Origin: Dehalococcoidia bacterium
GTDB taxonomy: Bacteria; Chloroflexota; Dehalococcoidia; Lucifugimonadales; UBA2985
Length of the DNA stretch: 64,000 nucleotides
NCBI GenBank assembly: GCA_965218945.1
Contig: OZ244718.1
Location: 3,005,700-3,069,699 of the forward strand
Reading direction: 5' to 3'
Both the position numbers and the translations under genes were made by a program. Under the pieces are notes generated by a model, which was given only the letters and a program-made list of their open reading frames with translations, did no database searches and was not told the DNA's origin. Shown here one piece after another: positions 37,121 through 58,107 of this stretch (the stretch's first letter is position 1; the number at the start of each line of letters is the position of its first letter).

Positions 37121-37210
37121 CCTCAACCCTATATAAGCGGTTCGAGTCCACTAAGGTGGGCCTAAGTTGACGGTAGGCAGTACCATCTTTGAGATGAGAA
37201 TCGGCCTGTG
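37121..37210 (+). repeat. island-boundary repeat copy 1 (contains a tRNA T-arm-like GGTTCGAGTCC relic)
   Basis: CCTCAACCCTATATAAGCGGTTCGAGTCCACTAAGGTGGGCCTAAGTTGACGGTAGGCAGTACCATCTTTGAGATGAGAATCGGCC. It aligns by eye with 44176-44260 and 61507-61590. It lies in a convergent intergenic gap (nuoN / cap2-like). Confidence 0.55.
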
Positions 37211-37375
37211 AACCGGGTGAATGGCCTCAGTCATTCTTTATGATGCGGCAGGGCTGAAGAGCGCCAGTAGCCCTTTGACGGTCCTCTGCTGGTCGATATC
37301 TTCTTGCCATGATGAATCTTCTTCGATGTTCAACTCGCTAGTCGCCGTTTGCAGGGTGATATCTCCTGCGTCCAC

Positions 37376-38923
37376 TCACTGCCCCAAGACAATCTTTCCA
37401 ATATGATGGAACGGCGGTTCAGGAATGGGCTGGTATACATCAATCACCTCATCGGCAAATTCGAACCGGCCAGTCAGGACGTCGATTGCCGCTTGAGCTA
37501 TGAGGGAAGAGCAGGCCGAGACTGCGGAGGGAGGGGCGTTGTTGACGGGGGCCGAGCAACCCAGCTGAGGAGAAGCGAAGTCCTCGCTTTCGGTACCAGC
37601 TGGTATGACTGGATAACGTAGGGAGTCCTCCCGTAGGTGAATCGGCGTGTCAGCGGGCACCACCTGCCGTTGCATCCGGCCAATGAAACCGCCTCGATAG
37701 AGCGCTCCCGAGACCAGCGGCTTTTCCATCTCCGCTGCCACCATGGCCAGTGAGGCAAGTAGCGCCTCGTTGCCCGTCGCGTCTAGGACGATGTCGGCGT
37801 CCTCTATGCGCTCTCGGATTGCGCCGGGCGTCCCGGGACCTTCCTGGAAACAGGTCACCTCCGTCCAGGGAGCGTGATCTGCAATCACCGCCTGGACCGC
37901 CTTTACCTTGGTGGTGCCCACCCGCCCATGGCCGGCGACGTGTCTCACCACATTCCCTGGCAAGAGCACGTCGGGGTCCACCAACGCCAATGAACCGAGC
38001 CCGCTTTCGGCTAGCAACGTTGCGGTGTGGCCGCCCAAGGCCCCCGCACCGAACAGAGTCGCTTTCCTGGTAAGCAACGTTGCCGAGTCTGGTCCCGCCC
38101 GGAGAATGAGGCTCTTGTCATCCTTTGGTCCTGGCTGCACTGCGATTGCCTCCACTTTGTCATCTACTCCTTTGCATACCATCACTAGCAGGTCGGTCCG
38201 ACCACGACGGTCCCAGCAGAACAGGATGAGATCCACGCCGCCGCTGACAACCAATGGGTCAGGTCTGCGCCGTTCCATCACCGCCCGCTGCAGTCCTCTA
38301 CGTTGTCCTCGTGATAGGTGGGCCGGAACCTCAGACAAATGACGGGGTGGTGGCGCCGTCAGCTCTCCCGCATGGAACCACAGCCCTTGAAGCTGGCTTC
38401 CTGTCGGCGGGTGCCCAGGCTCGATTTCTAGCCGGAACGGGTCGGGGTTCACAACCCCATAGAATTCACCCCAGCCTCGCTCGTGAACGGCAAGGGCACC
38501 GAGGTCGAAGGTGGCAACGAGGGCATCCTTGGGCCAGAAATTCAGCCATGCATCTTGATCGAGAAGGTCGTCCTCCCATCCACTTGTGGCGTTCTCGCAC
38601 CATTTCTCGATCCTGGAGTACAGACCATCGAGGGTGGCCCACTCCAAGCTAGGGTCTCCCTCGCGCCACATACACACCAAGCCCGAGCGCATCGAGTGGT
38701 TCGTGTTAAGGCCCTGCACGAAGAGACCAGGTGGACGGAAGGGCCATCCCGGAGCAATGACTATGTCCATCGTCTTCGCGTCGGTCAGCGGCCCGAAGGC
38801 CGGATGAATCTCGCCCGTCCAGCGTGGCGGGTCAGAGTCAGTGACCAGCCGGAAGCCAGCGGACGTCAGCTCCGAGGTGAACTGTTTCAGCGATTCAAGA
38901 TGGAAGTGTTGATCGGTGATCAT
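37376..38923 (-). CDS. cap2: Cap2-like E2/E1 fusion protein (CBASS type II accessory)
   Basis: N-terminal UBC-like segment (WPFRPPGLFV ... NHSMRSGLVCMW). C-terminal ThiF-type E1 (TLFGAGALGGHTATLLAESGLGSLALVDPDVLLPGNVVRH). Starts 3 nt after the CD-NTase stop. Confidence 0.8.
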   Translation of the reverse strand: MITDQHFHLESLKQFTSELTSAGFRLVTDSDPPRWTGEIHPAFGPLTDAKTMDIVIAPGWPFRPPGLFVQGLNTNHSMRSGLVCMWREGDPSLEWATLDGLYSRIEKWCENATSGWEDDLLDQDAWLNFWPKDALVATFDLGALAVHERGWGEFYGVVNPDPFRLEIEPGHPPTGSQLQGLWFHAGELTAPPPRHLSEVPAHLSRGQRRGLQRAVMERRRPDPLVVSGGVDLILFCWDRRGRTDLLVMVCKGVDDKVEAIAVQPGPKDDKSLILRAGPDSATLLTRKATLFGAGALGGHTATLLAESGLGSLALVDPDVLLPGNVVRHVAGHGRVGTTKVKAVQAVIADHAPWTEVTCFQEGPGTPGAIRERIEDADIVLDATGNEALLASLAMVAAEMEKPLVSGALYRGGFIGRMQRQVVPADTPIHLREDSLRYPVIPAGTESEDFASPQLGCSAPVNNAPPSAVSACSSLIAQAAIDVLTGRFEFADEVIDVYQPIPEPPFHHIGKIVLGQ

Positions 38924-38925
38924 CG

Positions 38926-39939
38926 CTATCCAAACCTACGGGCCTCATTCGGACGCCGGGCCACTGGTATGCCAGCGGCGGGGGCTACATATCTGGCTGC
39001 CTTGCTGCCGGGAGCCTTAGACGAGTTGCCCGCACCGACGCCGCTGGTGGAGCCTCTCCCAAAGCTCTCACCGAACAGTTTCTTCCAGGTATTGGCGGCC
39101 GCTTCGTTTGAAGGATCAGCCTTGGCCGTCTTTGCCGTCTGGGCATGGGAGTTGACTCTGGCCCGGAAGTTGGCGTACTTGGCCTGGTCCCAGTGTCGAT
39201 TGAAGTTCTCAGTTGGCAGAACGGGATTCTGGATCATCGGCATTACGGGATTGCGCTGGAGGATATCGTCCATTCTCGTCAGCACGGTCACCAGGGTGCC
39301 GGAGACTGTGCCGACGGCCTCCGTCCCCTCATCGGACGGCCTGATGGTGGCGCCAGCAAGGGTGGTCAGCAGAATGGACTTGGCGGTGTAGTTGTTCTTG
39401 TGGTCCCGCAGGTACTTGAGCAGCCTCACGACCCGCTTCAAGTTGCCGCCGGTAATCCGGTTCTTCTCGTTGAACCAGTCCCTGTACCCCGTACCGTCTG
39501 TCGGCTCGAATTTGTTATCGGCCCGATTGCAGACGTAGTGTCTGCCCTGAGAGGTCACCCGAGGAACGACGTCGAGGTGGAAGTCGCCGGCGTAGTCGAT
39601 GGTGACGCACCGTGTCTTGAGCCTGAGCTTGTCGGCATAGTTGTGATTCTGCTTGAGGGCGTTGTATATCGCGTTTACGTAGTCTTTGGCCTGCCAGTTG
39701 GGATTGGGGTTCATCACGATCTGGATGTCGGCATCGTACTCGTCGTTCTTGTCGACAGGCTTGATGAGGGTGCCCAGTGCGTATGAACCTTGCCGCTCCA
39801 TCTTCTGATAGCCGGTCAGGTTGTCTCTAAGGTGACTGTCTACAGCGCGCACACTGGTATTCAGTCGGTCGAGTCTGCTCTGGTTGAGATTGACCTCGTC
39901 CCTGAGAAGGTCTTGGAACTGCTGATTGTTCTTGGTCAT
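38926..39939 (-). CDS. CD-NTase / SMODS-family cyclic oligonucleotide synthase
   Basis: Pol-beta NTase signature QGSYALGT ... DEYDADIQIV. Start set at the ATG at 39939 behind an AAGGAGA RBS. Low-complexity C-terminal tail ending ...RRFG (terminal Gly). Confidence 0.75.
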   Translation of the reverse strand: MTKNNQQFQDLLRDEVNLNQSRLDRLNTSVRAVDSHLRDNLTGYQKMERQGSYALGTLIKPVDKNDEYDADIQIVMNPNPNWQAKDYVNAIYNALKQNHNYADKLRLKTRCVTIDYAGDFHLDVVPRVTSQGRHYVCNRADNKFEPTDGTGYRDWFNEKNRITGGNLKRVVRLLKYLRDHKNNYTAKSILLTTLAGATIRPSDEGTEAVGTVSGTLVTVLTRMDDILQRNPVMPMIQNPVLPTENFNRHWDQAKYANFRARVNSHAQTAKTAKADPSNEAAANTWKKLFGESFGRGSTSGVGAGNSSKAPGSKAARYVAPAAGIPVARRPNEARRFG

Positions 39940-40023
39940 CCGCGTCTCCTTGTGAAGTAGTGTTTTCGTCATCAGCGCCCCGGCCAGCCTCCGTACACGT
40001 ACGCAGACCATGCCGGAGTCATG

Positions 40024-40974
40024 TCACTCTGTTCTCTTCAAGTACTTCTTGACCTCCTCGCTGCGGAGTGTGAAGTCCCTGGTTGCAAGAGACATCAGTT
40101 CGTCCAGGTGCTTCACGTCGTCTAGGTCCCAATCATTGATAACGGGATCCAGACGCAGGTAGCTGCCTGGAAGAAACAGCTTCGCCATATTCTCCGAGGC
40201 CTGAGATTGCAGCCCGAGAACATAGGAGATCAGCTTCTGCCGGCGCCAGCCGGTAAGGAACCCCCAACTCCTGCTTCGGGAGTAGAGGTTGAGGGAGTGT
40301 CCAGTTCCGATAGATAGGATGCGCACCTGATCAACCGGCGTCCTGAACTTAGATACGGCCTCTGTCAGAGCTATGATCGAAGGATTGTTCGCCCACAGGC
40401 CGCCGTCTGCGAGTAGCAGATCGCCGACGAGAACAGGGTCAAAAAATGTAGGAGCTGCGCACGACGAGAGGATGGCGTCGCTCAAAAGCACCTGTGAATC
40501 CCTGACGTACGGCGCTTGGAGGTCCTCGAGGTACCTGGACTTGAACACATGGACTCCGCCGGTGGATATGTCGGAGCCGGTTATCATCAGCGGCTTCGAT
40601 ATCTGTCCCAGCGTGATGTTGGGTACGGACTCCCTTACGACCTGCTCGAGCGGCAGCCTTGAGTACTTGCTTCGAAATAAGAATGCGCCGATGCGCTTCT
40701 TTCCGAAGACCCTAGGGGCCTTCTCCTTGAAGAGCCTGACTATCTCGGCCATCGGGATGCCGACAGCCGCGGCTCCCCCTATGATCGACCCCGTGCTGGT
40801 GCCGACGATGAGGTCGAAGCACTCTCCGACCGGGGTCTGGAGCTCCTTTTCGATGTTGCCGAGCATCTGGGCGGGATAGATTCCTCTAGCCCCACCCCCG
40901 TCTAGGGCTAGGATGTGAAAAGCGGCTCCCTGATCCTTGGGTCTCTCCGTTCGTCCTTCTCTGCTAAACGGCAT
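40024..40974 (-). CDS. capV: patatin-like phospholipase (CapV-like CBASS effector)
   Basis: LDGGGARG oxyanion hole, GTSTGS (GxSxG) nucleophile and a LADGG catalytic Asp motif. ATG at 40974 behind a GGGAGA RBS (the track starts at a TTG at 40998). Confidence 0.85.
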   Translation of the reverse strand: MPFSREGRTERPKDQGAAFHILALDGGGARGIYPAQMLGNIEKELQTPVGECFDLIVGTSTGSIIGGAAAVGIPMAEIVRLFKEKAPRVFGKKRIGAFLFRSKYSRLPLEQVVRESVPNITLGQISKPLMITGSDISTGGVHVFKSRYLEDLQAPYVRDSQVLLSDAILSSCAAPTFFDPVLVGDLLLADGGLWANNPSIIALTEAVSKFRTPVDQVRILSIGTGHSLNLYSRSRSWGFLTGWRRQKLISYVLGLQSQASENMAKLFLPGSYLRLDPVINDWDLDDVKHLDELMSLATRDFTLRSEEVKKYLKRTE

Positions 40975-41076
40975 ATCGGTCTCCCGCGAGCTGCGCAATA
41001 CCGTGGTGCTCGACTGCTTCCTGTTGGGCGTTGTCCGGTTCCTTGTCTTGCCTCCGCAAGAGCAGTATGCGGCTCT

Positions 41077-41523
41077 TTACTTACGCCACTTCCCTGACGA
41101 CAAACCGCGCCATACGCGTCGGAGCCATGAGCGAGGGGTCTGACCGCGTGACGGCGAGCCAAGCATGCGAGCCCGCTCAGCACCCTCATAATCCGTGCGA
41201 CGCCCCGGATCGATCGGATACGACCAGACGACCTCGTTGTTTCGTATGAAATAGTGGCTGTTGCAATCGGAAGTGGTCCAGATTGACCCACCCGTAGGGC
41301 CTTTCAGCGAGACCGACTTGCCATCGAAGTAAACGTGCCATCGGCTGGGGTGGAGGGATAGCACCGCCAGTTCGCCACAGCCGCACGGACATCGCAGGTT
41401 AACGGTCCGATGCTTGTGGCTGACCCACAGCTCGCCATCTTTGATTGAGTCGAACGGGGGCATTACCTCTACGAAGATAGGGCGGAGCTTCACCGCGGGC
41501 AACTCATGCAAATCATTGCGCAT
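41077..41523 (-). CDS. DUF6527-like Cys-rich protein
   Basis: ELWVSHKHRTVNLRCPCGCGELAVLSL.PSRW.V.FDGKSVSL.......W...C.SHYFIRNNEVVW matches my recollection of DUF6527 (C-C-GC ... SHYWI.NN.V.W). The ATG at 41523 overlaps the E1 stop by 11 nt. It has an unusually long basic C-terminal tail. Confidence 0.6.
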   Translation of the reverse strand: MRNDLHELPAVKLRPIFVEVMPPFDSIKDGELWVSHKHRTVNLRCPCGCGELAVLSLHPSRWHVYFDGKSVSLKGPTGGSIWTTSDCNSHYFIRNNEVVWSYPIDPGRRTDYEGAERARMLGSPSRGQTPRSWLRRVWRGLSSGKWRK

Positions 41524-42700
41524 AGGAGATGCGCCCCTTCTCGAGCCGGAACTTCTGGAAGAATGAACGGGGCTCTGAAACATACTGCCCAGTGCGGCGG
41601 CGCCACTCCATGACGGCAAACGTCGCAGCCGCCGCGTTCACCTCCGGCAGTTGGACATTGCGATACCCGGGGGCACCACCATGCAGTCTGGCGTTCGGTA
41701 TGGCATCCTTCCAAGCATCAGAACCTGCATCATATGCACTTGTCGTCACGGAGCCTCTAACAGCACAGGCCTCGAGCGTTATACTCACGCCCGAATCGAT
41801 GAACGGCACCGCCGCCTCAGAGAGAGAGCAGTAGACGACATCCTGACGCGGCGAATCGCCCTCAGTGAGTTGGTCAATACACACGAAGGCATAGTCGATG
41901 GGATGATCCGACAGAAACTCAGCGAACATTGACGGGCTGTCTACTCGAACAGGATGCGGATGGATGCCGTCCCGGAAGGCCGCATACTTGGAATAATAGT
42001 AATCGACCTTGAACAGTGATCCCGCGCGAACGAGATCAATCTCCTCGGCGGTAGGCGCACCAGGGGCTCGCATGAGGGTGTGCCAGTCTACGCAATCAGA
42101 ATCCAGTAGATGGATTTCCGACACGGGCGTTTTGGCTATGAGATCAAGAAGGTAGGCGCCCGTTCCGCCCAAGCCGATAATCGCAATGCGCTGACCGCGG
42201 ATGCGGTCCTGGACTGGCGCGATGGCGGCCCGTGCCTCAAACGTGTTGGGTACGTGGAAGGGATCGGGCGTCCCGGCAGAAGCAGTCTCGGTGTGTCCGG
42301 CCGCCCACGCCGCCCCGACGATCTGCTTCGCATAGCGATGGACAACGTCGCTCGCCGACCTATCGTCTTCCGGGCTTTCCTGGCTGCCCTTGTGGATGGA
42401 GATGTTTGACCAGGTCTTGCCGTCACCTCCGACGCGGTTCCCAATAGGGGTCCCATCCGCATGGTACACGAGCCCGTCGAGCTCTGCGGCAGTGGTGATC
42501 TGCACCGCGTGGACCGCGTCGCCTATCCGACCATCCGGCTTCCCGCTGGAGGGGTCGTAGGACTTCCTGATGGTGCAAGTGCCAACGACCCCCTCCTTAA
42601 GGCGACAAGGAACCCCGACGGCCAGGACAATGTCAGGTTCGACCCTGACCTCAAACCCGACCTGCTCACCGAACGCGGTGAGGCGGTCTTTAGGAGACAT
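41513..42700 (-). CDS. ThiF-family E1-like adenylyltransferase with ~190-aa N-terminal extension (possible E2-like domain)
   Basis: Rossmann IAIIGLGGTGAYLLDLIAKT and LLDSDCVDWHTLMR. Start set at MSPKDRL (42700), which overlaps the Ubl stop by 11 nt. The N-terminal domain is not assignable by eye. Confidence 0.7.
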   Translation of the reverse strand: MSPKDRLTAFGEQVGFEVRVEPDIVLAVGVPCRLKEGVVGTCTIRKSYDPSSGKPDGRIGDAVHAVQITTAAELDGLVYHADGTPIGNRVGGDGKTWSNISIHKGSQESPEDDRSASDVVHRYAKQIVGAAWAAGHTETASAGTPDPFHVPNTFEARAAIAPVQDRIRGQRIAIIGLGGTGAYLLDLIAKTPVSEIHLLDSDCVDWHTLMRAPGAPTAEEIDLVRAGSLFKVDYYYSKYAAFRDGIHPHPVRVDSPSMFAEFLSDHPIDYAFVCIDQLTEGDSPRQDVVYCSLSEAAVPFIDSGVSITLEACAVRGSVTTSAYDAGSDAWKDAIPNARLHGGAPGYRNVQLPEVNAAAATFAVMEWRRRTGQYVSEPRSFFQKFRLEKGRISYAQ

Positions 42701-42938
42701 GCTCCGGGTCCACCGAGAAGCTAGTGCCGTCCTTGACCCTAACGTCCTTGCCCGGCAGGAGAACACCGTCCTCACCTTTCGAGTCGTCTTCGTAGTCAAT
42801 GCCGGGCGTGCCGATGATGTGCTTGTTCTCCGGCTCATGTAGCTGGTTCCATATCTTCACGATCTCCTCATAGGTCACGAGACCGCTTGGAACCTTGTAC
42901 TCTCGACCGCTCACGTAGATCTCCGTATCGCCATTCAT
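42690..42938 (-). CDS. ubiquitin-like beta-grasp protein (multiubiquitin-domain-like, single domain)
   Basis: 82 aa. EIYVSGREYKVPSGLVTYEEIVKIW ... DGVLLPGKDVRVKDGTSFSV fits the Multi_ubiq pattern. Very strong RBS (AAGGAAGGAGG). C-terminus is ...DPEHVS, not Gly. Confidence 0.6.
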   Translation of the reverse strand: MNGDTEIYVSGREYKVPSGLVTYEEIVKIWNQLHEPENKHIIGTPGIDYEDDSKGEDGVLLPGKDVRVKDGTSFSVDPEHVS

Positions 42939-42972
42939 GGGTATACCTCCTTCCTTGTTGTCCCACTAGATA

Positions 42973-43002
42973 TTGACAGTACCAACTCCGGTACTCCAAT
43001 AT
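42973..43002 (+). promoter_or_regulatory. divergent promoter region with palindromic candidate operator
   Basis: TTGACA (42973-42978), an 18-nt spacer, then CAATAT (42997-43002). The spacer is the perfect palindrome AGTACC-N6-GGTACT (42978-42995). On the opposite strand, TATATT lies just upstream of the same palindrome. Confidence 0.45.
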
Positions 43003-43077
43003 ACAGGGTATGAGCCGGTCGGCTCCCTTGTCAAGCCTTCAGTGGCACATTGTACCGTTTACCGCACAGGAGGCGAG

Positions 43078-43557
43078 ATGAACACAGGTAAGCTTGAACT
43101 CAGCGACCTAGGCCGCTTGGTTCTTGCCGAGCGAAGCCGTAGAGAGATGAGCCTCCGGGAGGCGGCTCTTGCCATAGGAATCCCCTTCAACACCTTGGCG
43201 CGCGTAGAGAAGGGGCACGTCCCCGACCTCCCTAAGTTCAAGAGACTCGTCGAATGGTGCGGCGCGGACATCACGCAATTCTTTGAAGCTCAGGAGAAGG
43301 CGGCGGCGACTACGGACATCATTGCCGAGCACCTTCGCTCGGACAGCAATCTACCCTCTGGCGCAGCCGATCAGATTGCAGGAATCGTCAGCGAGCTCTA
43401 CCAGGCGCTGGCGCGGCCCCAAGAAATCGTCGCAGTGCATCTGCGGGCCGCAAAGACGTTCCGCCCGGACGCTGCTCGCGTCATAGGCGTGTTACTCAGC
43501 GATATGAATGAAGCACTCATAGAGGAGCTTGCCGATGGCGCTGCGGAGAGGGTTTAA
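43078..43557 (+). CDS. XRE-family HTH regulator (CapH-like)
   Basis: HTH SLREAALAIGIPFNTLARVEKG. ATG at 43078 behind a CAGGAGG RBS. About 90-aa C-terminal non-HTH domain. Confidence 0.75.
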   Translation: MNTGKLELSDLGRLVLAERSRREMSLREAALAIGIPFNTLARVEKGHVPDLPKFKRLVEWCGADITQFFEAQEKAAATTDIIAEHLRSDSNLPSGAADQIAGIVSELYQALARPQEIVAVHLRAAKTFRPDAARVIGVLLSDMNEALIEELADGAAERV

Positions 43558-44089
43558 GTCCGAAGCCGAGAGAATAGCTAGGGGTGTGCAGGTGGACTTG
43601 GGAATCAGCGCGGCTCAGTCGGTCACTCCCGAAATGCTCGCCGATCTGCTGGGCATCGAGGTCCGAGCGGGGGACGAGTTGATACCACGCAAGAGGTTCG
43701 CCGAACTCGAAAAGGTGCAACCCGGCGCCTTCTCAGCGTGTACGTTTCGACCTTCGGCCGATCGCGTGGTCGTCGTATACAATCCTCTCTCGGCAGAATC
43801 GCGCCGGAGGAGCGATCTGGCACATGAACTTGCGCATACCCTTCTTGAGCACGAGCTGAGCCGGGTCGAGAAGCTCGGCGAAGTCACCTTCCTGTCTTGT
43901 GATTCGACTCAGGAGGAAGAGGCTACCTGGTTGTCCGGTTGTCTCCTTCTACCCCGTGCACTGCTACTGGTGGAAGTCCGTAAGGGATCTGGTGCGAGGG
44001 AGATTGCAAAGAGGTGCGGCGTCAGCGAAAAGATGGCTCAGTACAGATTGAATGTCACTGGTGTAACTAGGCAGAACCGAGCAGGTTAA
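43535..44089 (+). CDS. ImmA/IrrE-family zinc metallopeptidase (CapP-like)
   Basis: HExxH (AHELAHTLLEH) followed by EEEATWLSGCLLLP, typical of ImmA/IrrE. Overlaps the end of the HTH gene. Confidence 0.75.
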   Translation: MALRRGFKSEAERIARGVQVDLGISAAQSVTPEMLADLLGIEVRAGDELIPRKRFAELEKVQPGAFSACTFRPSADRVVVVYNPLSAESRRRSDLAHELAHTLLEHELSRVEKLGEVTFLSCDSTQEEEATWLSGCLLLPRALLLVEVRKGSGAREIAKRCGVSEKMAQYRLNVTGVTRQNRAG

Positions 44090-44283: not shown

Positions 44284-45162
44284 CTATGCGCCGCCTGGAC
44301 TAACCAGCTGCGCCACCTGAGGCCGCAGATCGCTGATCACAGTCTGGAATATAGGCAAGTCCGGCATGAGCGGGCCGAGCGACTGCTCCCAAGTCTCTTC
44401 GACGAAAGCAAGCATGCGGTCATGGAAGAATTTGTCCGGTCCTGCGAAGAAGACACCCCGGACGGCGCACTTCTCACGCAGCAGCGAGTCGAAGCCTGCC
44501 AGGTTCATTTGGTCTCTGTAGGCGTCAAGCACCCGCCAGAGGTCGTAGTAGTCGCGGGCGCGTGAGCGGCTCCAACCTCTCCGCTCGAACATTTCCGCTT
44601 GTTGCAGGAGCGCTCGCAGCTTTTCGGCAACAATCTCTTCGAGGGAATACACCTTCACTTCTGCGTTGAGCGGCTCGCCGTACTCGTGGATGACCTGCCG
44701 CAGCTCGGCAGGCAGCAGGACTCTCTCATCCATCGTTACCTCGACCATGACACGGGTCTGCAGGCGGCTGTGCCACGGAAACCTCGCTCGGATGGCGAAT
44801 GCTTCCTGACCGCCTGGATGGAGTTCCCTCTCCGTGTAACGCTCACAAGTGATCTCCACAGGAGCGTATTCGTCCAGAAGTCGCACGGCGGTTCCGCACA
44901 CTTCCCTTATCAACCCCTCTATCTCGTTGCCAGTCGGAATCCCTTTCAGCGTTGAGAAGTCCAAGTCCTCAGAGAAGCGGTAGTCACCGAAGTAGCACTT
45001 TCGGAGGGCTGTGCCTCCCTTGAAGACCAGTGTGTCGCGGAGCACGGGCGTCCGGCTAACGCCAGCCAAGATCCAGGACAGCAGGTAGTCGCGTTCAAGA
45101 GCCTCCCAGGGGATGCCGAGGCGTCGGCGTGCTTCCTGTAGGCGCGTGCGGAGTGGTCTCAT
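44284..45162 (-). CDS. abiEii: AbiEii/AbiGii-family nucleotidyltransferase toxin (type IV TA)
   Basis: LVFKGGTALRKCYFGDYRFSEDLDFS signature of DUF1814/AbiEii. Confidence 0.8.
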   Translation of the reverse strand: MRPLRTRLQEARRRLGIPWEALERDYLLSWILAGVSRTPVLRDTLVFKGGTALRKCYFGDYRFSEDLDFSTLKGIPTGNEIEGLIREVCGTAVRLLDEYAPVEITCERYTERELHPGGQEAFAIRARFPWHSRLQTRVMVEVTMDERVLLPAELRQVIHEYGEPLNAEVKVYSLEEIVAEKLRALLQQAEMFERRGWSRSRARDYYDLWRVLDAYRDQMNLAGFDSLLREKCAVRGVFFAGPDKFFHDRMLAFVEETWEQSLGPLMPDLPIFQTVISDLRPQVAQLVSPGGA

Positions 45163-45998
45163 GCCTCAACCATCCTTGGCAGGTTTTCCTGCACCATCCA
45201 ACGGCCATTGCATGGCCCCTTGCGAGGCCCAGTAGAATCAAGCTTGCGGTAGCCCTTGATCGGCAGCGCCGCCAGCTCCTCCAACTCGAACGGGAGAACC
45301 CCTTGGGCTTCGAGCGCCCACCCCAAGCGCTTGGCTGTGGTCACGCCCAGCCTGATGGCGTACTCTGTGATGCGTTCGATGTTCAGTCGAGCCATCGCGA
45401 CTTGGAAGGCGTAGAGCACCTCCCCGAACCCCCCACAGTGCTGGGGCATGGAGAGGCAGTCCAGCAACGTGCGCTCCAAGTCAGACATGGGCACACGGGC
45501 TTCGCCGACCCACAGGTTCTCACTTCCGAAGAAGCGGTCGGGCTTGACCTGGATGAACCGGTACGTTGTATCCCCGACGACGAAGCCGCCTCCGGCCCTC
45601 TCCTTCCCTTCCTTCCTCGGACGTGGAACCCAGGCATCCGTCGTCGTGAGGACGAAAACATCCCTCGGTATCTGCTCCGTCAACCCATGATGGTGCAGGG
45701 CCGACCAGTGGGAAATCATGGCTGGGTCCACCAAGGCCGTGGCTATCTCGAATTCGTGGGCGTCCGCAACCCCAGGGACCGTGGGAGAGAGCGCATAGAG
45801 TCCTCGCCGGAGGGGGACGATCCAGTCGTTCTTACGGAGGTGGTACAGCGCTTCGGTGAGGTAGGAGTCCTTCAGACCTACACGCGGCGCGAGCTCCCTG
45901 GCCCGCTCCGTCGTGAAGATGCGGTCTCCCTCATAGGCGAGCAGCCGGACCAGTTCGATGCCGACCAGAGATTGCTTGGGCTTTGTGCTAACCGTCAT
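45159..45998 (-). CDS. abiEi: AbiEi-family antitoxin/transcriptional regulator
   Basis: N-terminal wHTH. 4-nt overlap with abiEii. Start set at MTVSTKP (45998). Confidence 0.7.
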   Translation of the reverse strand: MTVSTKPKQSLVGIELVRLLAYEGDRIFTTERARELAPRVGLKDSYLTEALYHLRKNDWIVPLRRGLYALSPTVPGVADAHEFEIATALVDPAMISHWSALHHHGLTEQIPRDVFVLTTTDAWVPRPRKEGKERAGGGFVVGDTTYRFIQVKPDRFFGSENLWVGEARVPMSDLERTLLDCLSMPQHCGGFGEVLYAFQVAMARLNIERITEYAIRLGVTTAKRLGWALEAQGVLPFELEELAALPIKGYRKLDSTGPRKGPCNGRWMVQENLPRMVEA

Positions 45999-46039
45999 TG
46001 TACGTATCCCAGGGTTACATCTGGGTGAGAAGCAACTGC

Positions 46040-46068
46040 TTGCAAATTTACAGCGAAACTTGGATAAT
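46040..46068 (+). promoter_or_regulatory. sigma70-type promoter for the methyltransferase cluster
   Basis: TTGCAA, a 17-nt spacer, then GATAAT, 45 nt upstream of the ATG at 46113 (RBS GAGGGAGAG). Confidence 0.5.
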
Positions 46069-46112
46069 GTCAAAGATGCTGTGTTCCTGAGCTAACTATT
46101 GAGGGAGAGTCG

Positions 46113-49100
46113 ATGACCTCACCTACCGCCAATCAGACATCCGCATACCTCGAAGCCACATTCGGCCTTGGGCGCGACTGGACGTCGCAGGCAGGGCAGT
46201 CTGCAACGGTCTGGGAGACGCCTGCTTACCATCTTCTGTGGTTCAATGATGCAGCGAGCGATGTGGAACTACGGAGACTGTGGGAGGCACGGAAAGGCCG
46301 TCAAGCCTATCCGGTTGTCTTGCTGGCCCCATCAGACGACGCAAACAAACTGCGGGTAGCTGGGCCGCAGGATGCCCGGCCCATTCGGGAGTTGCCAGTC
46401 AGCCGAGTCCTCGACCTATTGGAGACGAGCCGCAGTCTGGCGGCCCGTGAAGCGGCATCGTTCCTGGCCAGGGAGTTCAGCCGTCTTGAGGAGGCAGTGG
46501 TTCCCGGGCTGCGGGTCAAGGACCTCCTCACCCCTCATTTCATGCGGGAGCGCCTGCGCCGGCCCATCAACGAGCAGCGATTGTCCGGCGCCGTCGATGG
46601 TATCGCTTCTATCGGCAGCATTGCATGGCGCTCACTGTTCCAAGGCATGGGCTACCAGGTGGAGCAGCTTCCCCAGCGCGGTTACTTGCTGAGGCACGAC
46701 AATGCGCCGGTTGCTGTGGTGCATCCTCACCGGGACGCCTCCCAGTTCAGCAGCCTCACGGACAACGGAGAACTGCCCGAGGGAATGGTGCTGGCGGACT
46801 GCGGGCAGCACGGGGCGCATTGGGGCATCCTGGCGGCGGAGGGCCGCTACCGGCTATTTCAGCGACGGCCTCCGGTAGGACCGGCGACGGGTCAGCACGT
46901 GGAGTTAGACCTAAGAGAGTTGGAGCGGAGCGACCGCTTCTATCTGGGTCTACTTGCCCCAGAGTCATTGAAGGAAAAGGGATGGCTGACCGATTGGGTC
47001 GGTGAGGCGAAGGACTTTGGTGAAGAGCTGCGGAAGGGGCTCGAGGAGCGGCTCATCAAGGACGCGCTGCCCAACATTGCGCGTGGGCTGGGTGAGTATC
47101 TTGAATCGCAGGGCGCAGATATGCGTGACCGGGAGCAACTCCGGCAGATAGAGGAGGCGGCGCTGACGCTGGTATTCCGGTTCATGTTCCTGTTGCACAC
47201 CGAGGCTCGCGGTTATCTCCCCATCGGCTCGGCGGCCTACCGGCCCCACAGCGCACGCCAGCTTGCCGAGGACTCCCGGCTGGCGCTGTCGTCGCTCAGC
47301 CGGAGGGCTACCCAGCGGTGGGACCGACTTCGGACACTGGTACGGATGGTGCGCACCGGAGATCGCTCGGCCGGAGTGCCCGCCTACAACGGCAGCCTCT
47401 TCGCTGCCGATGGCTTCCCTGGCAGCGCATTGCTGGAACGGGCCGAAATCGCCGACGTCCACCTCGCTCCTGCACTCGCGGCGATCGCCTACGAGACGGA
47501 CAAACCCGACGCTCCTGGACTGGATTACGCCGGCCTGCAAATCGGCCACCTGGGCGCCATCTATGAGGCCCTTCTCACCCTGAGGCTCACCCGCGCCCCC
47601 GAAGACCTGGCCTACGATTCCAGGCAGGATATGTTCCGCCCCGTCCGCGCCGGGGAGCAGCCGGAGGTGACCAGGGCTCAGCTCTACTACCAAGCCGAGA
47701 CGGGCGGACGAAAGGCCGGAGGCGTGTTCTACACGCGGCATGAGTTCGTGGATCACCTACTCAACCATTCGCTGCTGCCCGCCCTCGACGACCATCTGGC
47801 CGAGGTCAAGAAGGTCGCCCAGCAGGACTCCACCGAGGCGACGCGGCGGCTGTTCGACTTCTCGGTAGTGGACCCGGCGATGGGCAGCGCCCACTTCCTT
47901 ACGGCGGCCTTGGACATGATTGCTGACCGCATCGAGATCTTCCTCGCCGAAGTCGGCGGCCTGCCCGGTATTGCCCAGCTACTGAAGGAGTTGAGCCAGG
48001 ACAATGGGACGGTCTCTCAGCAGCCGGAGGACGGCGACCTGCTGCGGCGGCTCATACTCAAACGCTGCATCTACGGCGTAGACCTCTCCCCGATGGCGGT
48101 GGAGGTCGCTAACGTCACGCTCTGGCTGGCGTCCTTCGTTCCCGGCTTGGCCCTCTCCTATCTGGGCAGCAACCTCAAGTGCGGCGATGCCCTCATCGGC
48201 GTGGCCGATCCGTCCGTGGTCGGCGCCAGCGACAGCCCTCTCTTCACAGGCCAGACCGTGCGGAACGCCATGGACCACGCCGCCGCGCTCCAGCGGGAGC
48301 AGGCCGCTATCCCTGACCGGACGCCGGAAGAGGTCAAGCAGTCAGAGGAATTGGGAACCCGTCGGGAGGAAGCCACCGCAGGTCTGAGAGCGGCCTTCGA
48401 CCTGTGGGCGGCGGAACCACTTGGATTGACCGTCGAAAACAAGTTCATCGCGAAGAACGGAGATCTCCAAGAGCGTGTTGGTTCCCGTCATATACTGGAG
48501 AACAACGCGGCCGCTATTGTAGAGCGGCGTGAGACCCCAGATGTATCCGAAGTTGTAGCCAATGCCTCCGCCATCGCCGCCCAGTACCGCTTCTTCCACT
48601 GGCCCCTGGAGTTCCCCAACGTCTTCCACAGGGAGCATCCTGGCTTCGACGTGGTGGTCGGCAATCCACCGTGGAACGAGATAACCGTCGAGGAACTCGC
48701 CTTCTATGCGCTGCGCGAGCCTGGACTGCGGGGATGGTCGAATCTGGCTGACAGAAGAAGGCGCATCGCCGAGCTTGATGTGGAGAATCCTGGCTGGCGG
48801 GGGGAGCTTGAGGTACAGCAGGAACAAATGGCGACACTGCGGCAGTTCTTCTGGAAGAGCGGAGAGTATCACCTTTGGAGCGTGGGCGACCGGGACCTGT
48901 ACCAGCTCTTTTGCGAACGCTATGACCATTTAATCCGCCAGGAAGGGCGATTAGGTGTGGTGCTTCCTAGGAATGCATTCTTGGCGGAAGGGGCCAAACG
49001 ATTCAGACAGTGGCTCTTTACTCGCAACAGCCTGCGGCGTCTCGACCTCCTGCTAAATAACCGAAGTTGGGCGTTCACTATTCATCCGCAATATACGATT

Positions 49101-50138
49101 GCGCTGTTGACTGGCCAACGCCACACTCCAACCGGTCAGGCCGCCTTTCAAGTCACCGGTCCGTCAGCGAGCCTTGACGAGTTTCAGGCATCCGCTCAAG
49201 GCGATGGTATTACCATCCCTACGTCCTCCCTGGGTAGTGCCTATGTAGTGCCTCTCATGCCAAGCCAAGTGCACGCCGACGTGCTCGCCAAGCTGCGGCG
49301 CGGCATCCAGTTTGACGCTCTTCAAAATCCCGAAAGTCAAGAAATTTCAAGAGGGCGCGCTGCTGCGTCTCATGCAATTCCGTATAGGGAGCTAGATGAG
49401 ACGCAGCAGCGCGCCCTCTTCTCACATTCCCAAGGCGTTCCCGTATGGAAGGGTCGTTCGTTCAATCAGTACGCACCACATGGCAGTGAGCCAGCCGGAT
49501 ACGCCAAGTGGGATGAGGTCTTTTCCTTCGCACAGCAGAAGCGGATGCGATCTCCCGTCTTTAAGCGGATTTTTTCCAAAGAGGTCCTAGCCGATCCCAA
49601 GACCCATCCGATGAACCACTGCCGCATTGCCTTCCGAGACGTTACACGAAGCACTGACTCCCGCACCGTAAGAGCCTGCTTAGTGCCACCGCGAGTGCCT
49701 TTGACGAACAGCGCACCATACTTGGTGTTTGCGGGGTGGCTGCCACTATCTCAAGCGAGTTTACTTGGCGTACTGAACAGCACACCTTTTGACTGGCTGG
49801 CTCGCAGATATGTCGAGATTCATCTCAATTTCTATGTTCTCAACAGCCTTACCTTTCCTCCACCGGCCAACACTCCCTGGCAGCGCATCGGTAGGTTGGC
49901 TGCCCGATTGTCCTGCACGGACGAGCGGTTCGCTGAATTCGCTGCTGAGGTAGGGGTGGAGTGCGGGGTGTTGACCGAGGCTCGGCACAACGACATGCGG
50001 GCAGAGATAGATGCCCTCGTCGCACGCGCTTACGGTTTGACCGAGGACGAGTTGCGCTTCATCTTCACCGACTTCACGGAGAACGCGGTCAGCCCCGCCT
50101 ACCGGCGGCAGGTTCTGGAGAAGCTCGAGGGCCTGTAG
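46113..50138 (+). CDS. large (1341 aa) gamma-class N6-adenine DNA methyltransferase, Eco57I/PglX/type IIG-like
   Basis: Motif I VVDPAMGSAHFL, YGVDLSPMAVEVANVTLWL and motif IV VVVGNPPW. About 550-aa N-terminal region of unknown function. About 470-aa C-terminal TRD-like region (LNSTPFDWLARRYV..HLNFYVLNSL.FPPP). Confidence 0.8.
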   Translation: MTSPTANQTSAYLEATFGLGRDWTSQAGQSATVWETPAYHLLWFNDAASDVELRRLWEARKGRQAYPVVLLAPSDDANKLRVAGPQDARPIRELPVSRVLDLLETSRSLAAREAASFLAREFSRLEEAVVPGLRVKDLLTPHFMRERLRRPINEQRLSGAVDGIASIGSIAWRSLFQGMGYQVEQLPQRGYLLRHDNAPVAVVHPHRDASQFSSLTDNGELPEGMVLADCGQHGAHWGILAAEGRYRLFQRRPPVGPATGQHVELDLRELERSDRFYLGLLAPESLKEKGWLTDWVGEAKDFGEELRKGLEERLIKDALPNIARGLGEYLESQGADMRDREQLRQIEEAALTLVFRFMFLLHTEARGYLPIGSAAYRPHSARQLAEDSRLALSSLSRRATQRWDRLRTLVRMVRTGDRSAGVPAYNGSLFAADGFPGSALLERAEIADVHLAPALAAIAYETDKPDAPGLDYAGLQIGHLGAIYEALLTLRLTRAPEDLAYDSRQDMFRPVRAGEQPEVTRAQLYYQAETGGRKAGGVFYTRHEFVDHLLNHSLLPALDDHLAEVKKVAQQDSTEATRRLFDFSVVDPAMGSAHFLTAALDMIADRIEIFLAEVGGLPGIAQLLKELSQDNGTVSQQPEDGDLLRRLILKRCIYGVDLSPMAVEVANVTLWLASFVPGLALSYLGSNLKCGDALIGVADPSVVGASDSPLFTGQTVRNAMDHAAALQREQAAIPDRTPEEVKQSEELGTRREEATAGLRAAFDLWAAEPLGLTVENKFIAKNGDLQERVGSRHILENNAAAIVERRETPDVSEVVANASAIAAQYRFFHWPLEFPNVFHREHPGFDVVVGNPPWNEITVEELAFYALREPGLRGWSNLADRRRRIAELDVENPGWRGELEVQQEQMATLRQFFWKSGEYHLWSVGDRDLYQLFCERYDHLIRQEGRLGVVLPRNAFLAEGAKRFRQWLFTRNSLRRLDLLLNNRSWAFTIHPQYTIALLTGQRHTPTGQAAFQVTGPSASLDEFQASAQGDGITIPTSSLGSAYVVPLMPSQVHADVLAKLRRGIQFDALQNPESQEISRGRAAASHAIPYRELDETQQRALFSHSQGVPVWKGRSFNQYAPHGSEPAGYAKWDEVFSFAQQKRMRSPVFKRIFSKEVLADPKTHPMNHCRIAFRDVTRSTDSRTVRACLVPPRVPLTNSAPYLVFAGWLPLSQASLLGVLNSTPFDWLARRYVEIHLNFYVLNSLTFPPPANTPWQRIGRLAARLSCTDERFAEFAAEVGVECGVLTEARHNDMRAEIDALVARAYGLTEDELRFIFTDFTENAVSPAYRRQVLEKLEGL

Positions 50139-50163
50139 GGTGTAGCCGAGAGGCAAAACGATA

Positions 50164-50904
50164 GTGTTGCTAATGAGCGAGCTTGCAAGGGGAGTTGATC
50201 ACTCCATCGGCAACATACGGAGGAGCGTAAAGGCATACGTCTTCGATGGAGATGACTCGGCATATCGCGTTGTGGCCGTAGAGTTGAGGAAACTGCTTCT
50301 GGATACCAATGCAGCCGCATCATTTGCTCCTAAAGTCAAGAAAGGGAAGAATAAGCGGAGTCTCTTTGAATTGCATTACGGCAGTGGCAAGAACATACTT
50401 GTGCGATCCTTCATACCAGAGCAAGAGGACAAGGAGAGCCCCGAATCCAACGACTATGTCGCGGTTTCGCCAAACATTTACCCGAACCGAACCGACATAC
50501 TCTGGACAGCGACGCATGGCGGCAGGCTAGTTAACCTCATTGCTTGGTTGGATGAACCCTTCGTCCACAACAACAGTGGAGCCGTGATGAAGGTTCGAAC
50601 AGTCTTGCATTACATAGCGGGCAGAGAGGGAGCTCACATCATAAGCTCAAAGGGGAGAGATGAGAGAGAAGACGTCAGGATTGCGTTCTCTGCCAGTCCA
50701 GTCGCAACTGAAGACGTGCCGTCCCTTGAATTCGTCGAGCACTGGGAACAATTCGTCATAGATGCAGGGATGAGATTGCTCGATGCGAGGAGGGCAGCAA
50801 ACGGACATCCTCTAATAGCGCACGGCGTCTCTGTACCAGAGAGGCAGGTCACAACAACGAGACTTGAGAAGATTAGACCGGGTATACGAAAACTGAGGTC
50901 CTGA
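50164..50904 (+). CDS. hypothetical protein (no recognisable motif), embedded in the methyltransferase/helicase cluster
   Basis: 246-aa ORF, co-directional, with 26-nt gaps to both neighbours. Visibly AT-richer than its neighbours. Confidence 0.5.
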   Translation: MLLMSELARGVDHSIGNIRRSVKAYVFDGDDSAYRVVAVELRKLLLDTNAAASFAPKVKKGKNKRSLFELHYGSGKNILVRSFIPEQEDKESPESNDYVAVSPNIYPNRTDILWTATHGGRLVNLIAWLDEPFVHNNSGAVMKVRTVLHYIAGREGAHIISSKGRDEREDVRIAFSASPVATEDVPSLEFVEHWEQFVIDAGMRLLDARRAANGHPLIAHGVSVPERQVTTTRLEKIRPGIRKLRS

Positions 50905-50930
50905 GCAAGCAGCAGGGGGGAGGACTTTAC

Positions 50931-54173: not shown

Positions 54174-54269
54174 CTTATTAGCCACTTGGTTCTCGGGTGG
54201 TGACTATGGTATTGCTGGCCGTAGTGCGCCCCTTGATTCCAATCGTTTCTTAGCCTACTCTGAGGTATT

Positions 54270-55271: not shown

Positions 55272-55694
55272 CTTCGTCTCTCTATTGCTTTCGTGGCAGG
55301 CTGTCCCAATTCCAAGTATGGCCACGACAAGGGTACCACTCGCTCACCCCACGAGTTTTTCGATACAGGGTGTGACACCTCGAACGCCCTGTCAAAAGCA
55401 AGCCTTGTCGGGGGACAAGCCTAGGTCCAGCCACAGGCCTCCCTTACGCGCCACCGATGAATCGAAGATCAGCGCTGACCTGATATGGTCACCCTGCGCT
55501 CTGCCGTTCCGAAGCACCTCGACTGGTTCTAATCAAGGCTTTCCCCTCGCTCCTACCACAAAACCGCACCCAAAACAAGGGCTTGCAATGCCTTACCTTC
55601 GACGAATTTCCCGTTTAAAATGGGATGTTGGGCTATTGCTGGCAGGAGCAGTCGATTGATCGTCGCGGAGCCAAGAACACAACCATTGAACGGC

Positions 55695-57671: not shown

Positions 57672-58058
57672 CCGCCCCAGCCGTTCCGACCACTTCCTGT
57701 AGGGGGTGTCCCAGCATGGCTGCTGGGACCATTGTCCTCCCACTTGCAACCGCTCTTGCACCTTCCGCCCTCCCGATTACAAATTGGTGCAGAATTGACA
57801 CGTCAGGGGAGGCCCCGTCCACCACACATTCCTACCGCCTCTCAGCTTTGGCTCGTAGCTACATCCGCCTCACCAACGACCCAACGAACATCTCCTCGAG
57901 GGTCACAGAAGCATGTTGCATTACCGGCGCCAGTCCGTTCCTACGACTTCCTATAGGGGGACAGAGGGGCATTCCTCTACTTACGGTGTTAGCCCCCAAC
58001 AGGTCGAAACGTGACAATTGTTGCAGCGCCCGGCGGGGGGTTGAAGATCGGTTGCCGG

Positions 58059-58088: not shown

Positions 58089-58107
58089 AGCTATGAAGAG
58101 AGAGGCC

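Follow-up and report, generated by a model that had tools for sequence, protein, structure and literature searches.

A Type II Bub operon with a CapH/CapP pair lies head to tail with a Cap3-less CBASS in a Dehalococcoidia defence island

Within the window, i.e. the whole 64,000-nt stretch of the Dehalococcoidia contig OZ244718.1 that was analysed, the 37.1-44.1 kb interval carried two known cassettes head to tail, a CapH/CapP-Type II Bub operon followed by a Cap3-less CBASS. As each cassette was found alone in many other genomes, the composite is a juxtaposition of two described, self-sufficient anti-phage-type cassettes and not a new kind of system. In the explanation that we favour and consider reasonably probable, recombination joined the two cassettes and the CBASS is now read from the bubA promoter, with no exchange of substrates indicated. 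The content and order of the eight genes, first proposed in a sequence-only reading of the window, were confirmed: six minus-strand ORFs and a divergent pair were recovered at the same coordinates, and profile searches (Pfam, PADLOC) backed a family assignment for each gene, with the HTH_3 match of capH just below the cut-off. Both cassettes are surrounded by a larger defence island carried by an integrative element, which also holds AbiE, RM, SIR2 and a helicase/PLD system. The right-hand limit of the shared island was placed at 37136..37140, where homology with the related islands L001 and L083 ends; beyond it lies the nuoM/nuoN operon in the window, and L001 and L083 each run on into a different flank.

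The upstream half is a published Type II Bub operon (formerly '6E.2'/DUF6527; Ye, Gong, Chambers & Corbett, bioRxiv 2024, PMC11601596; Gong et al., PMC11601603), consisting of BubA, BubBD and BubE with a divergent CapH/CapP pair. CapH and CapP are both present in 31% of 544 known Bub operons (PMC11601596), so a Ubl/E1/DUF6527 module behind such a pair is already described. The three genes follow the described order with overlapping frames (11 nt for both bubA/bubBD and bubBD/bubE), and the Ubl, E1 and DUF6527 assignments were all supported by profile searches. BubA (42690..42938, minus strand) is an 82-aa single beta-grasp ubiquitin-like protein (Multi_ubiq, 28.6 bits; cut-off 24.5), whose C-terminus ...SFSVDPEHVS was unchanged across 13 relatives; its last residue is Ser, as in the Type II Bub multiubiquitin proteins of Runella and Rhizobium, which end ...DKS. 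BubBD (41513..42700, minus strand; ThiF, 35.6 bits) had been read as an E1-like protein, which holds for its E1 adenylation domain (about 1​60-395 aa) but not for the protein as a whole, an E2-E1 fusion of about 395 aa with an N-terminal E2-like domain (about 1-135 aa). Its family profile matched Citrobacter BubCD (9.6e-10), and the best Foldseek PDB matches of its AlphaFold2 model (pLDDT 82) were Citrobacter BubCD structures (9eav, 9ea5 and 9ea8; about 1e-12 to 1e-11). The His/Ser/Lys E2-type triad of Type II Bub was recognised in H64 (invariant), S101 (conserved in at least 90%) and a Lys at 103/104, and Y346 lies within a flexible loop (337-348).

BubE (41077..41523, minus strand; DUF6527, 58.3 bits) contained the motif RCPCGCG...GGSIWTTSDCNSH, with the C-x-C-x-C and Ser-x6-Cys-x2-His spacing described for BubE, a reported Ser-His peptidase removing Ubl conjugates (PMC11601596). 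Both the CxCxC...C ligands of its C4 zinc site and the Ser/His dyad are retained, and the earlier statement that the locus encodes no recognisable isopeptidase was thus wrong. As in other Type II Bub operons, this peptidase occurs without a JAB. The window departs from them in having a co-oriented CBASS trio 102 nt past bubE, an arrangement of which no mention was found in the accessible published Bub literature, and in belonging to a subfamily very distant from the E. coli and Citrobacter proteins studied so far. At the sequence level, BubA had no PDB match and the sole match of BubBD was to an unrelated enzyme (8ide), in its ThiF-type domain. The subfamily itself is extremely conserved and widespread in metagenomes (75-90% identity over >100 clusters).

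Divergent from bubA, capP (43529..44089, plus strand) encodes an ImmA/IrrE-type (M78) metallopeptidase, the partner of CapH (Peptidase_M78, 61.6 bits; PADLOC capP, 3.5e-10), with a HELAH motif in its translation. The XRE-type HTH repressor CapH had been correctly recognised as a member of the pair, its HTH_3 match (E = 1.2e-4, 22.5 bits) being slightly below the 23-bit cut-off. The longest ORF spans 42973-43557, but gene calls in near-identical contigs indicate Met36, at about 43078, as the likely start, giving a protein of 159 aa (43078..43557, plus strand). As in CapH/CapP-regulated immune operons (Lau et al., EMBO J 2022; 10.1101/2022.04.27.489752), the HTH and M78 genes are divergent from their presumed target operon, and the intergenic region holds a palindrome. 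This inverted repeat, AGTACC-N6-GGTACT (42978..42995, minus strand), is a putative CapH operator and is overlapped by a candidate bubA promoter (TTGGAG-N17-TCAATA). The repeat block occurs once in the window and is kept in L001, L084 and L085, among loci that are 82-99% identical overall. Unlike in the operons of Lau et al., the pair belongs by descent to the Bub cassette and any control of the CBASS would be second-hand, via read-through: it shared 80-87% identity with pairs of standalone Bub loci (CapH, 80-87%; CapP, 81-84% to the proteins adjoining the Type II Bub operons L084 and L085) and 28-39% with pairs beside CBASS relatives (CapP, only 33-39%).

The downstream half comprised capV (40024..40974, minus strand), encoding a patatin-like phospholipase effector (Patatin, 101.5 bits; PADLOC CBASS phospholipase effector, 2.2e-81), a CD-NTase gene (38926..39939, minus strand; SMODS, 111 bits; PADLOC cyclase, 2e-110) and, after a gap of 2 nt, cap2 (37376..38923, minus strand), encoding an E2-E1 fusion without a JAB domain (ThiF; PADLOC E1-E2 model PDLC00847, positions 2-512 of 523, 2.9e-171). 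The patatin effector, the SMODS CD-NTase with its conserved C-terminal Gly, the Cap2 fusion with invariant cysteines and the gene order are shared with Type II CBASS (capV-dncV-cap2-cap3 operons; Ledvina et al. 2023, Jenson et al. 2023, PMC10097602), unlike which the window lacks Cap3/JAB. This absence, already noted from the sequence, was borne out by a JAMM-motif scan of the window from 30 to 52 kb, which found no JAB gene, and by the 430-nt cap2-nuoN interval, which holds no ORF >78 aa. Cap3 was likewise absent throughout the Chloroflexota-dominated Cap2 clade, in which the capV, CD-NTase and cap2 genes come mostly from Dehalococcoidia, and was seen only in distant actinobacterial outliers (L065, L079). 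The Gly terminus of the CD-NTase (...EARRFG), also correctly read before, was shared by 54 of 59 CD-NTase-like ORFs taken from the loci (five of these are the window itself or repeat copies of one element), and Cys84, Cys109, Cys236, Cys250 and Cys456 of Cap2 were invariant in 16 homologues. Because these residues are so conserved, the CBASS of this clade would appear to be functional without Cap3.

The two cassettes can occur separately and differ in their histories. Among 79 species-level loci with Cap2 homologues, about 50 of them with the full capV-cdn-cap2 trio, no window-type bubA, bubBD or bubE was found out to 10 kb, even with the threshold relaxed to E < 1. The closest CBASS relatives (L102-L105; 85-91% aa identity) lack Bub and carry a divergent regulator pair of their own, and an M78 gene lies directly upstream of 22 of 47 CBASS trios. 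Standalone capP-capH|bubA-bubBD-bubE loci (L084, L085; 80-87% aa identity) and other Type II Bub loci (L086-L100) are without CBASS. The halves were found together only in three near-identical islands of one narrow lineage, in three different flanking contexts. Between the window and L001, DNA identity was 97.7-99.6% in capHP and Bub, 89.5-93.9% in the CBASS and 94-96% in abiE; this fall at the junction, from 98-99.6% to about 90%, indicates separate histories of the cassettes. The composite was nonetheless kept across this divergence of about 10% in the CBASS genes and in the three flanking contexts, a hint that the linkage is perhaps not neutral.

The junction itself is the 102-nt bubE-capV spacer (40975..41076, minus strand), with homology breakpoints on both sides. 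By blastn, homology with L084 spans 44084-41077 and with L085 44078-41055, stopping at or near the bubE stop codon, and homology with the nearest CBASS relative, L102, begins only about 30 nt ahead of the capV ATG. The 5' region that carries TTGACA-N17-TATGCT ahead of capV in L104 and L105 is missing in the window. In agreement with the sequence-only reading, no promoter-like hexamer pair was detected in or near the spacer under a sigma-70 consensus of the E. coli type, to which promoters of Chloroflexota may not conform, and no U-tailed terminator-like site in the spacer or after bubE; the sole structure is a 6-bp hairpin (41077-41058), and the fold of the spacer RNA was no more stable than expected from shuffled sequences (z = -1.06). 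Ahead of the capV ATG there is a Shine-Dalgarno-like motif, GGGAG. Because capV retains only ~30 bp of its relatives' 5' region behind a spacer without promoter or terminator, read-through is likely, and both cassettes probably form one transcript from the CapH/CapP-controlled bubA promoter, which supports the single regulon suggested earlier. The missing hexamer pair and 5' region, the lack of a terminator behind bubE, and the shared orientation over 102 nt with an SD-like motif ahead of capV also make it unlikely that the cassettes are two independent systems with their own promoters and neither regulation nor function in common. A CBASS promoter would then have to lie unrecognised in the spacer or within bubE, and a promoter scan is weak evidence in a non-model phylum. 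Defence systems do cluster, as they do in this very island; AbiEi/AbiEii lies directly behind cap2 in six other loci, other Bub operons are followed by defence-type genes (methylase, DUF499, transposases), and both cassettes are separable.

Under the favoured explanation, CapH would, by analogy with the published Bub system, repress the divergent bubA promoter and be cut by CapP upon DNA damage. BubBD would adenylate the BubA C-terminus and hand BubA to targets via Tyr and Ser oxyester intermediates, and BubE would remove the conjugates as a Ser-His peptidase. Cap2 would prime the CD-NTase by conjugating its Gly C-terminus, and the cyclic nucleotide product would switch on the phospholipase CapV. 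Recombination would have placed the CBASS trio 102 nt downstream of bubE, the trio shedding the regulator pair and promoter region present in its closest relatives, so as to be most probably read through from the bubA promoter as a transcriptional fusion.

Nothing indicates substrate exchange between the two conjugation machineries. We consider it very unlikely that the eight genes form one system in which Bub is an integral accessory of the Cap3-less CBASS, with BubE as the missing deconjugase of CD-NTase conjugates or BubA modulating the CD-NTase or its targets. Such a role would fit a CBASS that is missing Cap3 and has a co-oriented gene for a peptidase, BubE, 102 nt ahead of it, that has lost its relatives' regulator and promoter and sits behind the Bub promoter, and whose adjacency to Bub is retained in three flanking contexts and by two diverged alleles. 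However, nearly 90% of clade loci lack any second E1, JAB or DUF6527 gene to a distance of 10 kb, yet keep the Gly-ended CD-NTase and invariant Cap2 cysteines; the closest relatives of both cassettes are standalone, and the identity step points to separate histories. The chemistries also differ, Bub using oxyester intermediates and here a Ser-ended BubA, Cap2 cysteine thioesters and a Gly-ended substrate (PMC11601596). The earlier proposal of a Ubl module standing in for the Cap3 arm fails at the clade level, as the whole Cap2 clade is Cap3-less and this Bub cassette occurred in 0 of 79 loci.

Some support for a functional link comes from Ubl modules with a peptidase that recur beside the clade in five or more types (L015, L021, L034, L002/L078/L013, L102, L010/L104). 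At the locus L021 (MAG Dehalococcoidia, CBDHFZ010000003.1), eight contiguous genes with 4-nt overlaps make up an independent array of a Type I-like Bub, an SDH protease and a CBASS (Multi_ubiq, Prok-E2_E, JAB-ThiF, DUF6527, SDH protease, patatin, CD-NTase, Cap2). As in the window, the Cap3-less CBASS, whose Cap2 falls in the same clade (63% identity), is directly preceded by a co-oriented Bub-type module. This module is likewise separable, its nearest relative (L108) being standalone without CBASS, which again speaks against an integral role. Unlike the window, L021 has a separate Ubl and E2, a JAB-E1 fusion, an additional ClpP-like SDH protease, a different patatin effector (30% identity), no CapH/CapP pair and still tighter gene packing. 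Within 10 kb of the CBASS, other ubiquitin-like modules were found in about 7 of the 79 species-level GTDB loci, about 10%, and in three of six other ENA (metagenome-assembly) loci examined. From these raw counts, taken without a background rate, the neighbourhood looks like more than a purely random one, and because other Ubl module types recur in about 10% of clade loci, there may be some affinity between Ubl modules and this CBASS clade.

Six co-oriented minus-strand genes and a divergent plus-strand pair made up the array in the ORF table, as the sequence-only reading had described, and searches against Pfam and PADLOC backed each of its family assignments, the HTH of capH being marginal. 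On the minus strand, the array comprised bubA (42938-42690; Multi_ubiq, PF14452, 28.6 bits for a cut-off of 24.5), bubBD (42700-41513; ThiF), bubE (41523-41077; DUF6527, PF20137, 58.3 bits), capV (40974-40024; Patatin, 101.5 bits; PADLOC CBASS phospholipase effector, 2e-81), the CD-NTase gene (39939-38926; SMODS, 111 bits; PADLOC CBASS cyclase, 2e-110) and cap2 (38923-37376), which matched the PADLOC CBASS E1-E2 model PDLC00847 over its full length (2.9e-171). The plus strand carried capH (42973-43557; XRE-type HTH, with HTH_3 at 22.5 bits for a cut-off of 23) and capP (43529-44089; Peptidase_M78, 61.6 bits; PADLOC capP, 3.5e-10). The reported lack of a JAB gene in or beside the array also held on re-annotation: none of the eight array proteins matched Prok-JAB in Pfam, a motif scan found no JAMM motif in the ORFs of window 30-52 kb, and the interval between cap2 and nuoN contained no ORF longer than 78 aa. 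Far from the array, a 277-aa E1/ThiF-like ORF (5062-5895, minus strand) matched the Cap2 E1-domain HMM (4.9e-12); it is probably of the housekeeping MoeB/ThiF type.

By its sequence features, the upstream half of the array is a Type II Bub operon, an already published system. The DUF6527 or '6E' operons were renamed Bub by Ye, Gong, Chambers and Corbett (PMC11601596), and Type II Bub was defined as three genes, encoding BubA (Ubl), BubBD (E2-E1 fusion) and BubE (DUF6527), without a JAB (PMC11601596). The biochemistry, i.e. ATP-dependent BubA conjugation and its reversal by BubE, is known from E. coli and Citrobacter proteins; conjugation proceeds through oxyester intermediates on Tyr (E1) and then Ser (E2), BubA conjugates are stripped by BubE, a Ser-His peptidase carrying a C4 zinc site, and CapH and CapP are carried by 168 of 544 Bub operons (31%) (PMC11601596). 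The earlier statement that the array held no recognisable isopeptidase is therefore out of date, DUF6527 being the BubE peptidase of that study. Phage protection by Bub operons has not yet been demonstrated, according to a later paper (PMC13373217).

The window BubA shared 73-100% identity with 12 BubA ORFs adjoining BubBD homologues, and its C-terminus (...DPEHVS) was invariant among the window and these relatives. Type I BubA is reported to end in Gly, whereas the window protein ends in Ser; since Ser-ended BubA also occurred in the annotated, plasmid-borne Type II Bub operons of Runella slithyformis (...TDKS), named as a BubBD example in PMC11601596, and Rhizobium etli (...SDKS), the Ser end is a family trait rather than a defect. 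Ser-ended Type II BubA (...EHVS, ...TDKS, ...SDKS) was located at window 42690-42704 and in relatives, and at L099:1740-2213, L106:2866-3564 and L107:3322-3981, with the bubA stop overlapping the bubBD start in every Type II case examined.

BubBD is a single protein of ~400 aa, the C-terminal half of which is a Bub-type E1 adenylation domain. Its family profile matched Citrobacter BubCD in the PDB (9.6e-10), while phmmer searches of PDB sequences, with BubA or BubBD as query, recovered neither Bub nor E2 proteins, only generic ThiF and chance low-complexity matches. An AlphaFold2 run with 15 near-identical sequences was discarded (pLDDT 56); with 30 diverse homologues the model reached pLDDT 82, and its best Foldseek matches in the PDB were the Citrobacter BubCD entries 9eav, 9ea5 and 9ea8. 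In the alignment of the 30 diverse homologues, H64 and R211 were invariant, S101 was at least 90% conserved, and a Lys was present at 103/104; H64, S101 and this Lys are candidates for the His, Ser and Lys that replace a catalytic Cys in the E2 domain of BubBD. Y346, taken as the conserved Tyr of the E1 crossover loop, was invariant in 15 close homologues, aligned no more than one column away from the consensus Tyr in distant homologues, lay in a flexible loop (337-348) of the model and was matched to E. coli Y342 by position alone. The N-terminal ~135 residues were modelled as helix, six strands and helix (pLDDT ~90), and the first helix and four strands, as modelled, fit a UBC-like topology; when the profile of this domain was aligned with that of the Cap2 E2 domain using hhalign, no homology was detectable (probability 0.07%). 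In BubE, the pattern CxCxC ... S-x6-C-x2-H, corresponding to the C4 zinc ligands and the Ser/His dyad, was kept in all 15 relatives. The Type II Bub subfamily of the window was unusually conserved, with 75-90% aa identity over >100 clusters, a Gemmatimonadaceae MAG among them.

Concerning the downstream half, the window Cap2 had hundreds of close homologues, and 79 Cap2-homologue loci were recovered on scanning species-representative genomes, mostly in Dehalococcoidia MAGs with a few in Acidimicrobiia, of which ~50 kept the capV-cdn-cap2 trio. The CD-NTase tail (...EA(R/G)(R/G)FG) was Gly-ended in 54 of the 59 CD-NTase-like ORFs from these loci, and Cap2 possessed five invariant cysteines, C84 and C456 among them, from which Cap2 is expected to conjugate the CD-NTase in this clade. 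Prok-JAB was not among the families matched by at least two of the 79 ORFs downstream of Cap2, and no JAB followed Cap2 in the Chloroflexota loci, which makes the absence of Cap3 a property of the clade and not a peculiarity of the window locus. Two distant actinobacterial members, L065 and L079, were the only loci with a JAMM-motif ORF immediately following Cap2, indicating that the scan was able to detect Cap3 where present. The window system shares with canonical four-gene Type II CBASS the CD-NTase with its Gly end, the effector and the Cap2 fusion with its cysteines, but it lacks the Cap3 of that system and is thus a variant rather than a canonical member; a literature search for CBASS said to lack Cap3 returned no match. 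In six loci of the clade, the CBASS trio was preceded at a distance of a few kb by a gene for a ~1000-aa protein with AAA_16/ATPase_2 and TPR regions and a C-terminal SMODS domain 67-76% identical to the window CD-NTase (L003:1491-4472, L032:3584-6532, L035:3548-6496, L039:3576-6524, L040:3462-6494, L059:3258-6338). Several of these proteins end in ...FG, and their make-up resembles that of a STAND-type NTPase fused to a CD-NTase and paired with CBASS.

The two halves proved separable, and the proposal of a conserved Bub-CBASS composite did not survive the comparison. Window-type BubA, BubBD or BubE was found within 10 kb of none of the 79 species-level CBASS loci, even at E < 1, and CBASS accompanied none of ~10 independent Type II Bub loci. 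The BubBD scans returned nine metagenome and four viral loci; in all nine of the former and in three on viral contigs, the Bub cassette had no CBASS beside it. Bub was absent from the closest CBASS relatives (L102-L105), in which each of the three CBASS proteins was 85-91% identical (aa) and capV was immediately preceded by a divergent regulator pair belonging to that locus. Conversely, standalone Bub operons without CBASS were present with CapH/CapP at 80-87% aa in two loci (L084 and L085), and also in a Gemmatimonadaceae MAG (L086-L088). DNA homology between the window and these two CapH/CapP-bearing loci spanned 44084-41077 (L084) and 44078-41055 (L085), i.e. from capP to the bubE stop codon. 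Beyond the window, the composite was found only on two contigs bearing near-identical islands, L001 (Cap2 88%) and L083 (~100%), with the island held in common as far as window 37136-37140 and different flanks beyond.

Between the window and L001, DNA identity was 97.7-99.6% over capP, capH, bubA, bubBD and bubE, 94-96% over abiEii/abiEi on one flank, and 89.5-93.9% over capV, cdn and cap2 on the other. The identity step coincided with the bubE-capV junction, so that the Bub cassette behaves as a recombination unit of its own, and the comparison of window 41077-44089 with L001 suggests that only the Bub cassette was recently replaced or underwent gene conversion. On the L083 contig (506-1332 and 3722-4601), an IS encoding a DDE_3 transposase interrupted the Eco57I-like gene and abiEii was split into two ORFs, which points to decay of the neighbouring genes, Bub and CBASS being intact. 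In one of the closest CBASS relatives (Cap2 86%), co-oriented ORFs of 63 and 161 aa without any family match lay between the divergent CapH/CapP and capV (L103:4207-4886), where the window has its Bub genes.

The best reading of the locus is that two known cassettes were joined by recombination, probably into one CapH/CapP-controlled transcription unit, and that each would work by its own mechanism. A functional composite, in which BubE would stand in for the missing Cap3 or the two conjugation systems would act on each other's targets, draws on the Cap3-less state of the clade and the peptidase assignment of BubE; set beside the separate occurrence of the halves, it appears improbable. The idea that Type II Bub carries variable downstream 'cargo', of which CBASS would be one instance, was rejected, as the downstream neighbours were heterogeneous (unknowns, a methylase, DUF499, transposases, convergent genes) and not consistently co-oriented.

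The 102-nt bubE-capV spacer had been described as free of convincing promoter and terminator signals apart from a weak 6-bp hairpin, and scans bore this out, a 6-bp hairpin at 41077-41058 being the sole feature. Sigma-70 promoter and intrinsic-terminator scans of 36.9-44.3 kb, using a consensus that may not fit Chloroflexota, gave scores no better than shuffles and nothing in the spacer, the RNA fold of which was also no better than that of shuffled sequence (z = -1.06). The spacer consisted of a ~22-nt tail of the Bub lineage, a ~50-nt junction and a ~30-nt CBASS leader with a GGGAG motif, this leader being all that the window keeps of the 5' region of its nearest CBASS relative (L102). Two other close relatives (L104 and L105) had TTGACA-N17-TATGCT shortly before capV, and an M78 (CapP-like) gene was directly upstream of capV in 22 of 47 trios of the clade. 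As bubE is not followed by a terminator, the simplest route to CBASS expression would be read-through from the promoter of bubA. The capH/capP pair is divergent from bubA over a 139-nt intergenic region, in which a conserved AGTACC-N6-GGTACT palindrome lies inside a promoter-like TTGGAG-N17-TCAATA stretch. In such a pair, DNA damage would trigger CapH cleavage and de-repression. The idea that these regulators first controlled the CBASS and that Bub was later placed between the two was rejected on the pair's identity of 80-87% to the pairs of standalone Bub operons vs 28-39% to those of the CBASS relatives.

Next to capP lies an AbiEii toxin/AbiEi antitoxin pair (44284-46073, minus strand). AbiE homologues (56-70% aa) directly followed cap2 in six loci (L019, L023, L024, L034, L035, L064), making AbiE a recurrent neighbour of the CBASS clade. 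The remainder of the island (46113-63973) included several defence and mobility genes, encoding an Eco57I/MmeI-like methylase-type protein (1341 aa), a 246-aa ORF, a PLD-SNF2 helicase (1080 aa), a Replic_Relax/MarR protein, a SIR2_2 protein, a large serine recombinase (59843-61474) and another SNF2 helicase. Such a gene content points to an integrative element that carries a defence island and borders nuoM/nuoN; no tRNA gene was found in the window.

Other ubiquitin-like modules were sought within 10 kb of the CBASS by E1-domain HMM scan, JAMM-motif scan and Pfam, and, as raw counts, occurred in ~7 of the 79 GTDB loci and in three of six other ENA loci examined, nearly 90% of the clade having no such neighbour. 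One Dehalococcoidia MAG (CBDHFZ010000003.1, L021:4486-11551) carried Multi_ubiq (99 aa), Prok-E2_E (130 aa), JAB-ThiF (460 aa), DUF6527 (141 aa) and a ClpP-like SDH protease (312 aa), contiguous and co-oriented with patatin-cdn-cap2 as eight genes with 4-nt overlaps, and is an independent Type I-like Bub-CBASS juxtaposition. The nearest relative of its Bub module (L108, 89%) lacked CBASS and also encoded the SDH protease, which therefore belongs to this Bub variant. Directly before capV, one locus had ORFs of 86 and 153 aa and a JAB-E1 of 508 aa behind divergent capP/capH (L015:4684-11551), and another had capH, capP, JAB, E1 and two small ORFs before capV (L034:4170-11539). Small ORFs with a 501-aa JAB-E1 lay a few kb upstream and divergent in three loci (L002:1-3221, L078:2101-4279, L013), and a divergent Bil-like set (Multi_ubiq, 130 aa, JAB and an IS-disrupted ThiF) was found at L102:259-4695. 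An MBL-like protein with an 801-aa E2-E1-JAB protein was encoded downstream of and co-oriented with cap2 in one case (L010:11909-15471), and divergently, ~1.5 kb upstream of capV, in another (L104:1-4783).

The Cap3-less CBASS clade shows a tendency to sit near Ubl modules, and this recurrence, taken as a raw frequency, is suggestive. Its frequency was comparable to that of AbiE, a far commoner system. That this mostly Dehalococcoidia clade repeatedly captures Ubl conjugation modules because they cooperate is, in our view, a long shot. Under cooperation, the neighbouring peptidase (BubE or JAB) would supply Cap3-type deconjugation in trans or, alternatively, Ubl conjugation would gate CD-NTase priming.

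Overall, the locus is a new architectural variant of known parts, and its novelty is modest. If the parts are independent, it is simply a well-resolved case of how defence islands shuffle cassettes and swap regulators. If they do cooperate, the eight-gene CapH/CapP-controlled unit of the window would be a genuine two-tier conjugation system, and would provide the first biological role for Bub operons, which so far are defined by their biochemistry. A large Type II-like CBASS clade that keeps Cap2 and a Gly-ended CD-NTase, and never Cap3, makes it a question how conjugation is restrained there. As Bub and CBASS appear to share one DNA-damage-controlled transcript at this natural locus, it may serve as a convenient test bed for asking if Bub works by itself, in parallel with other immune systems, or upon them.
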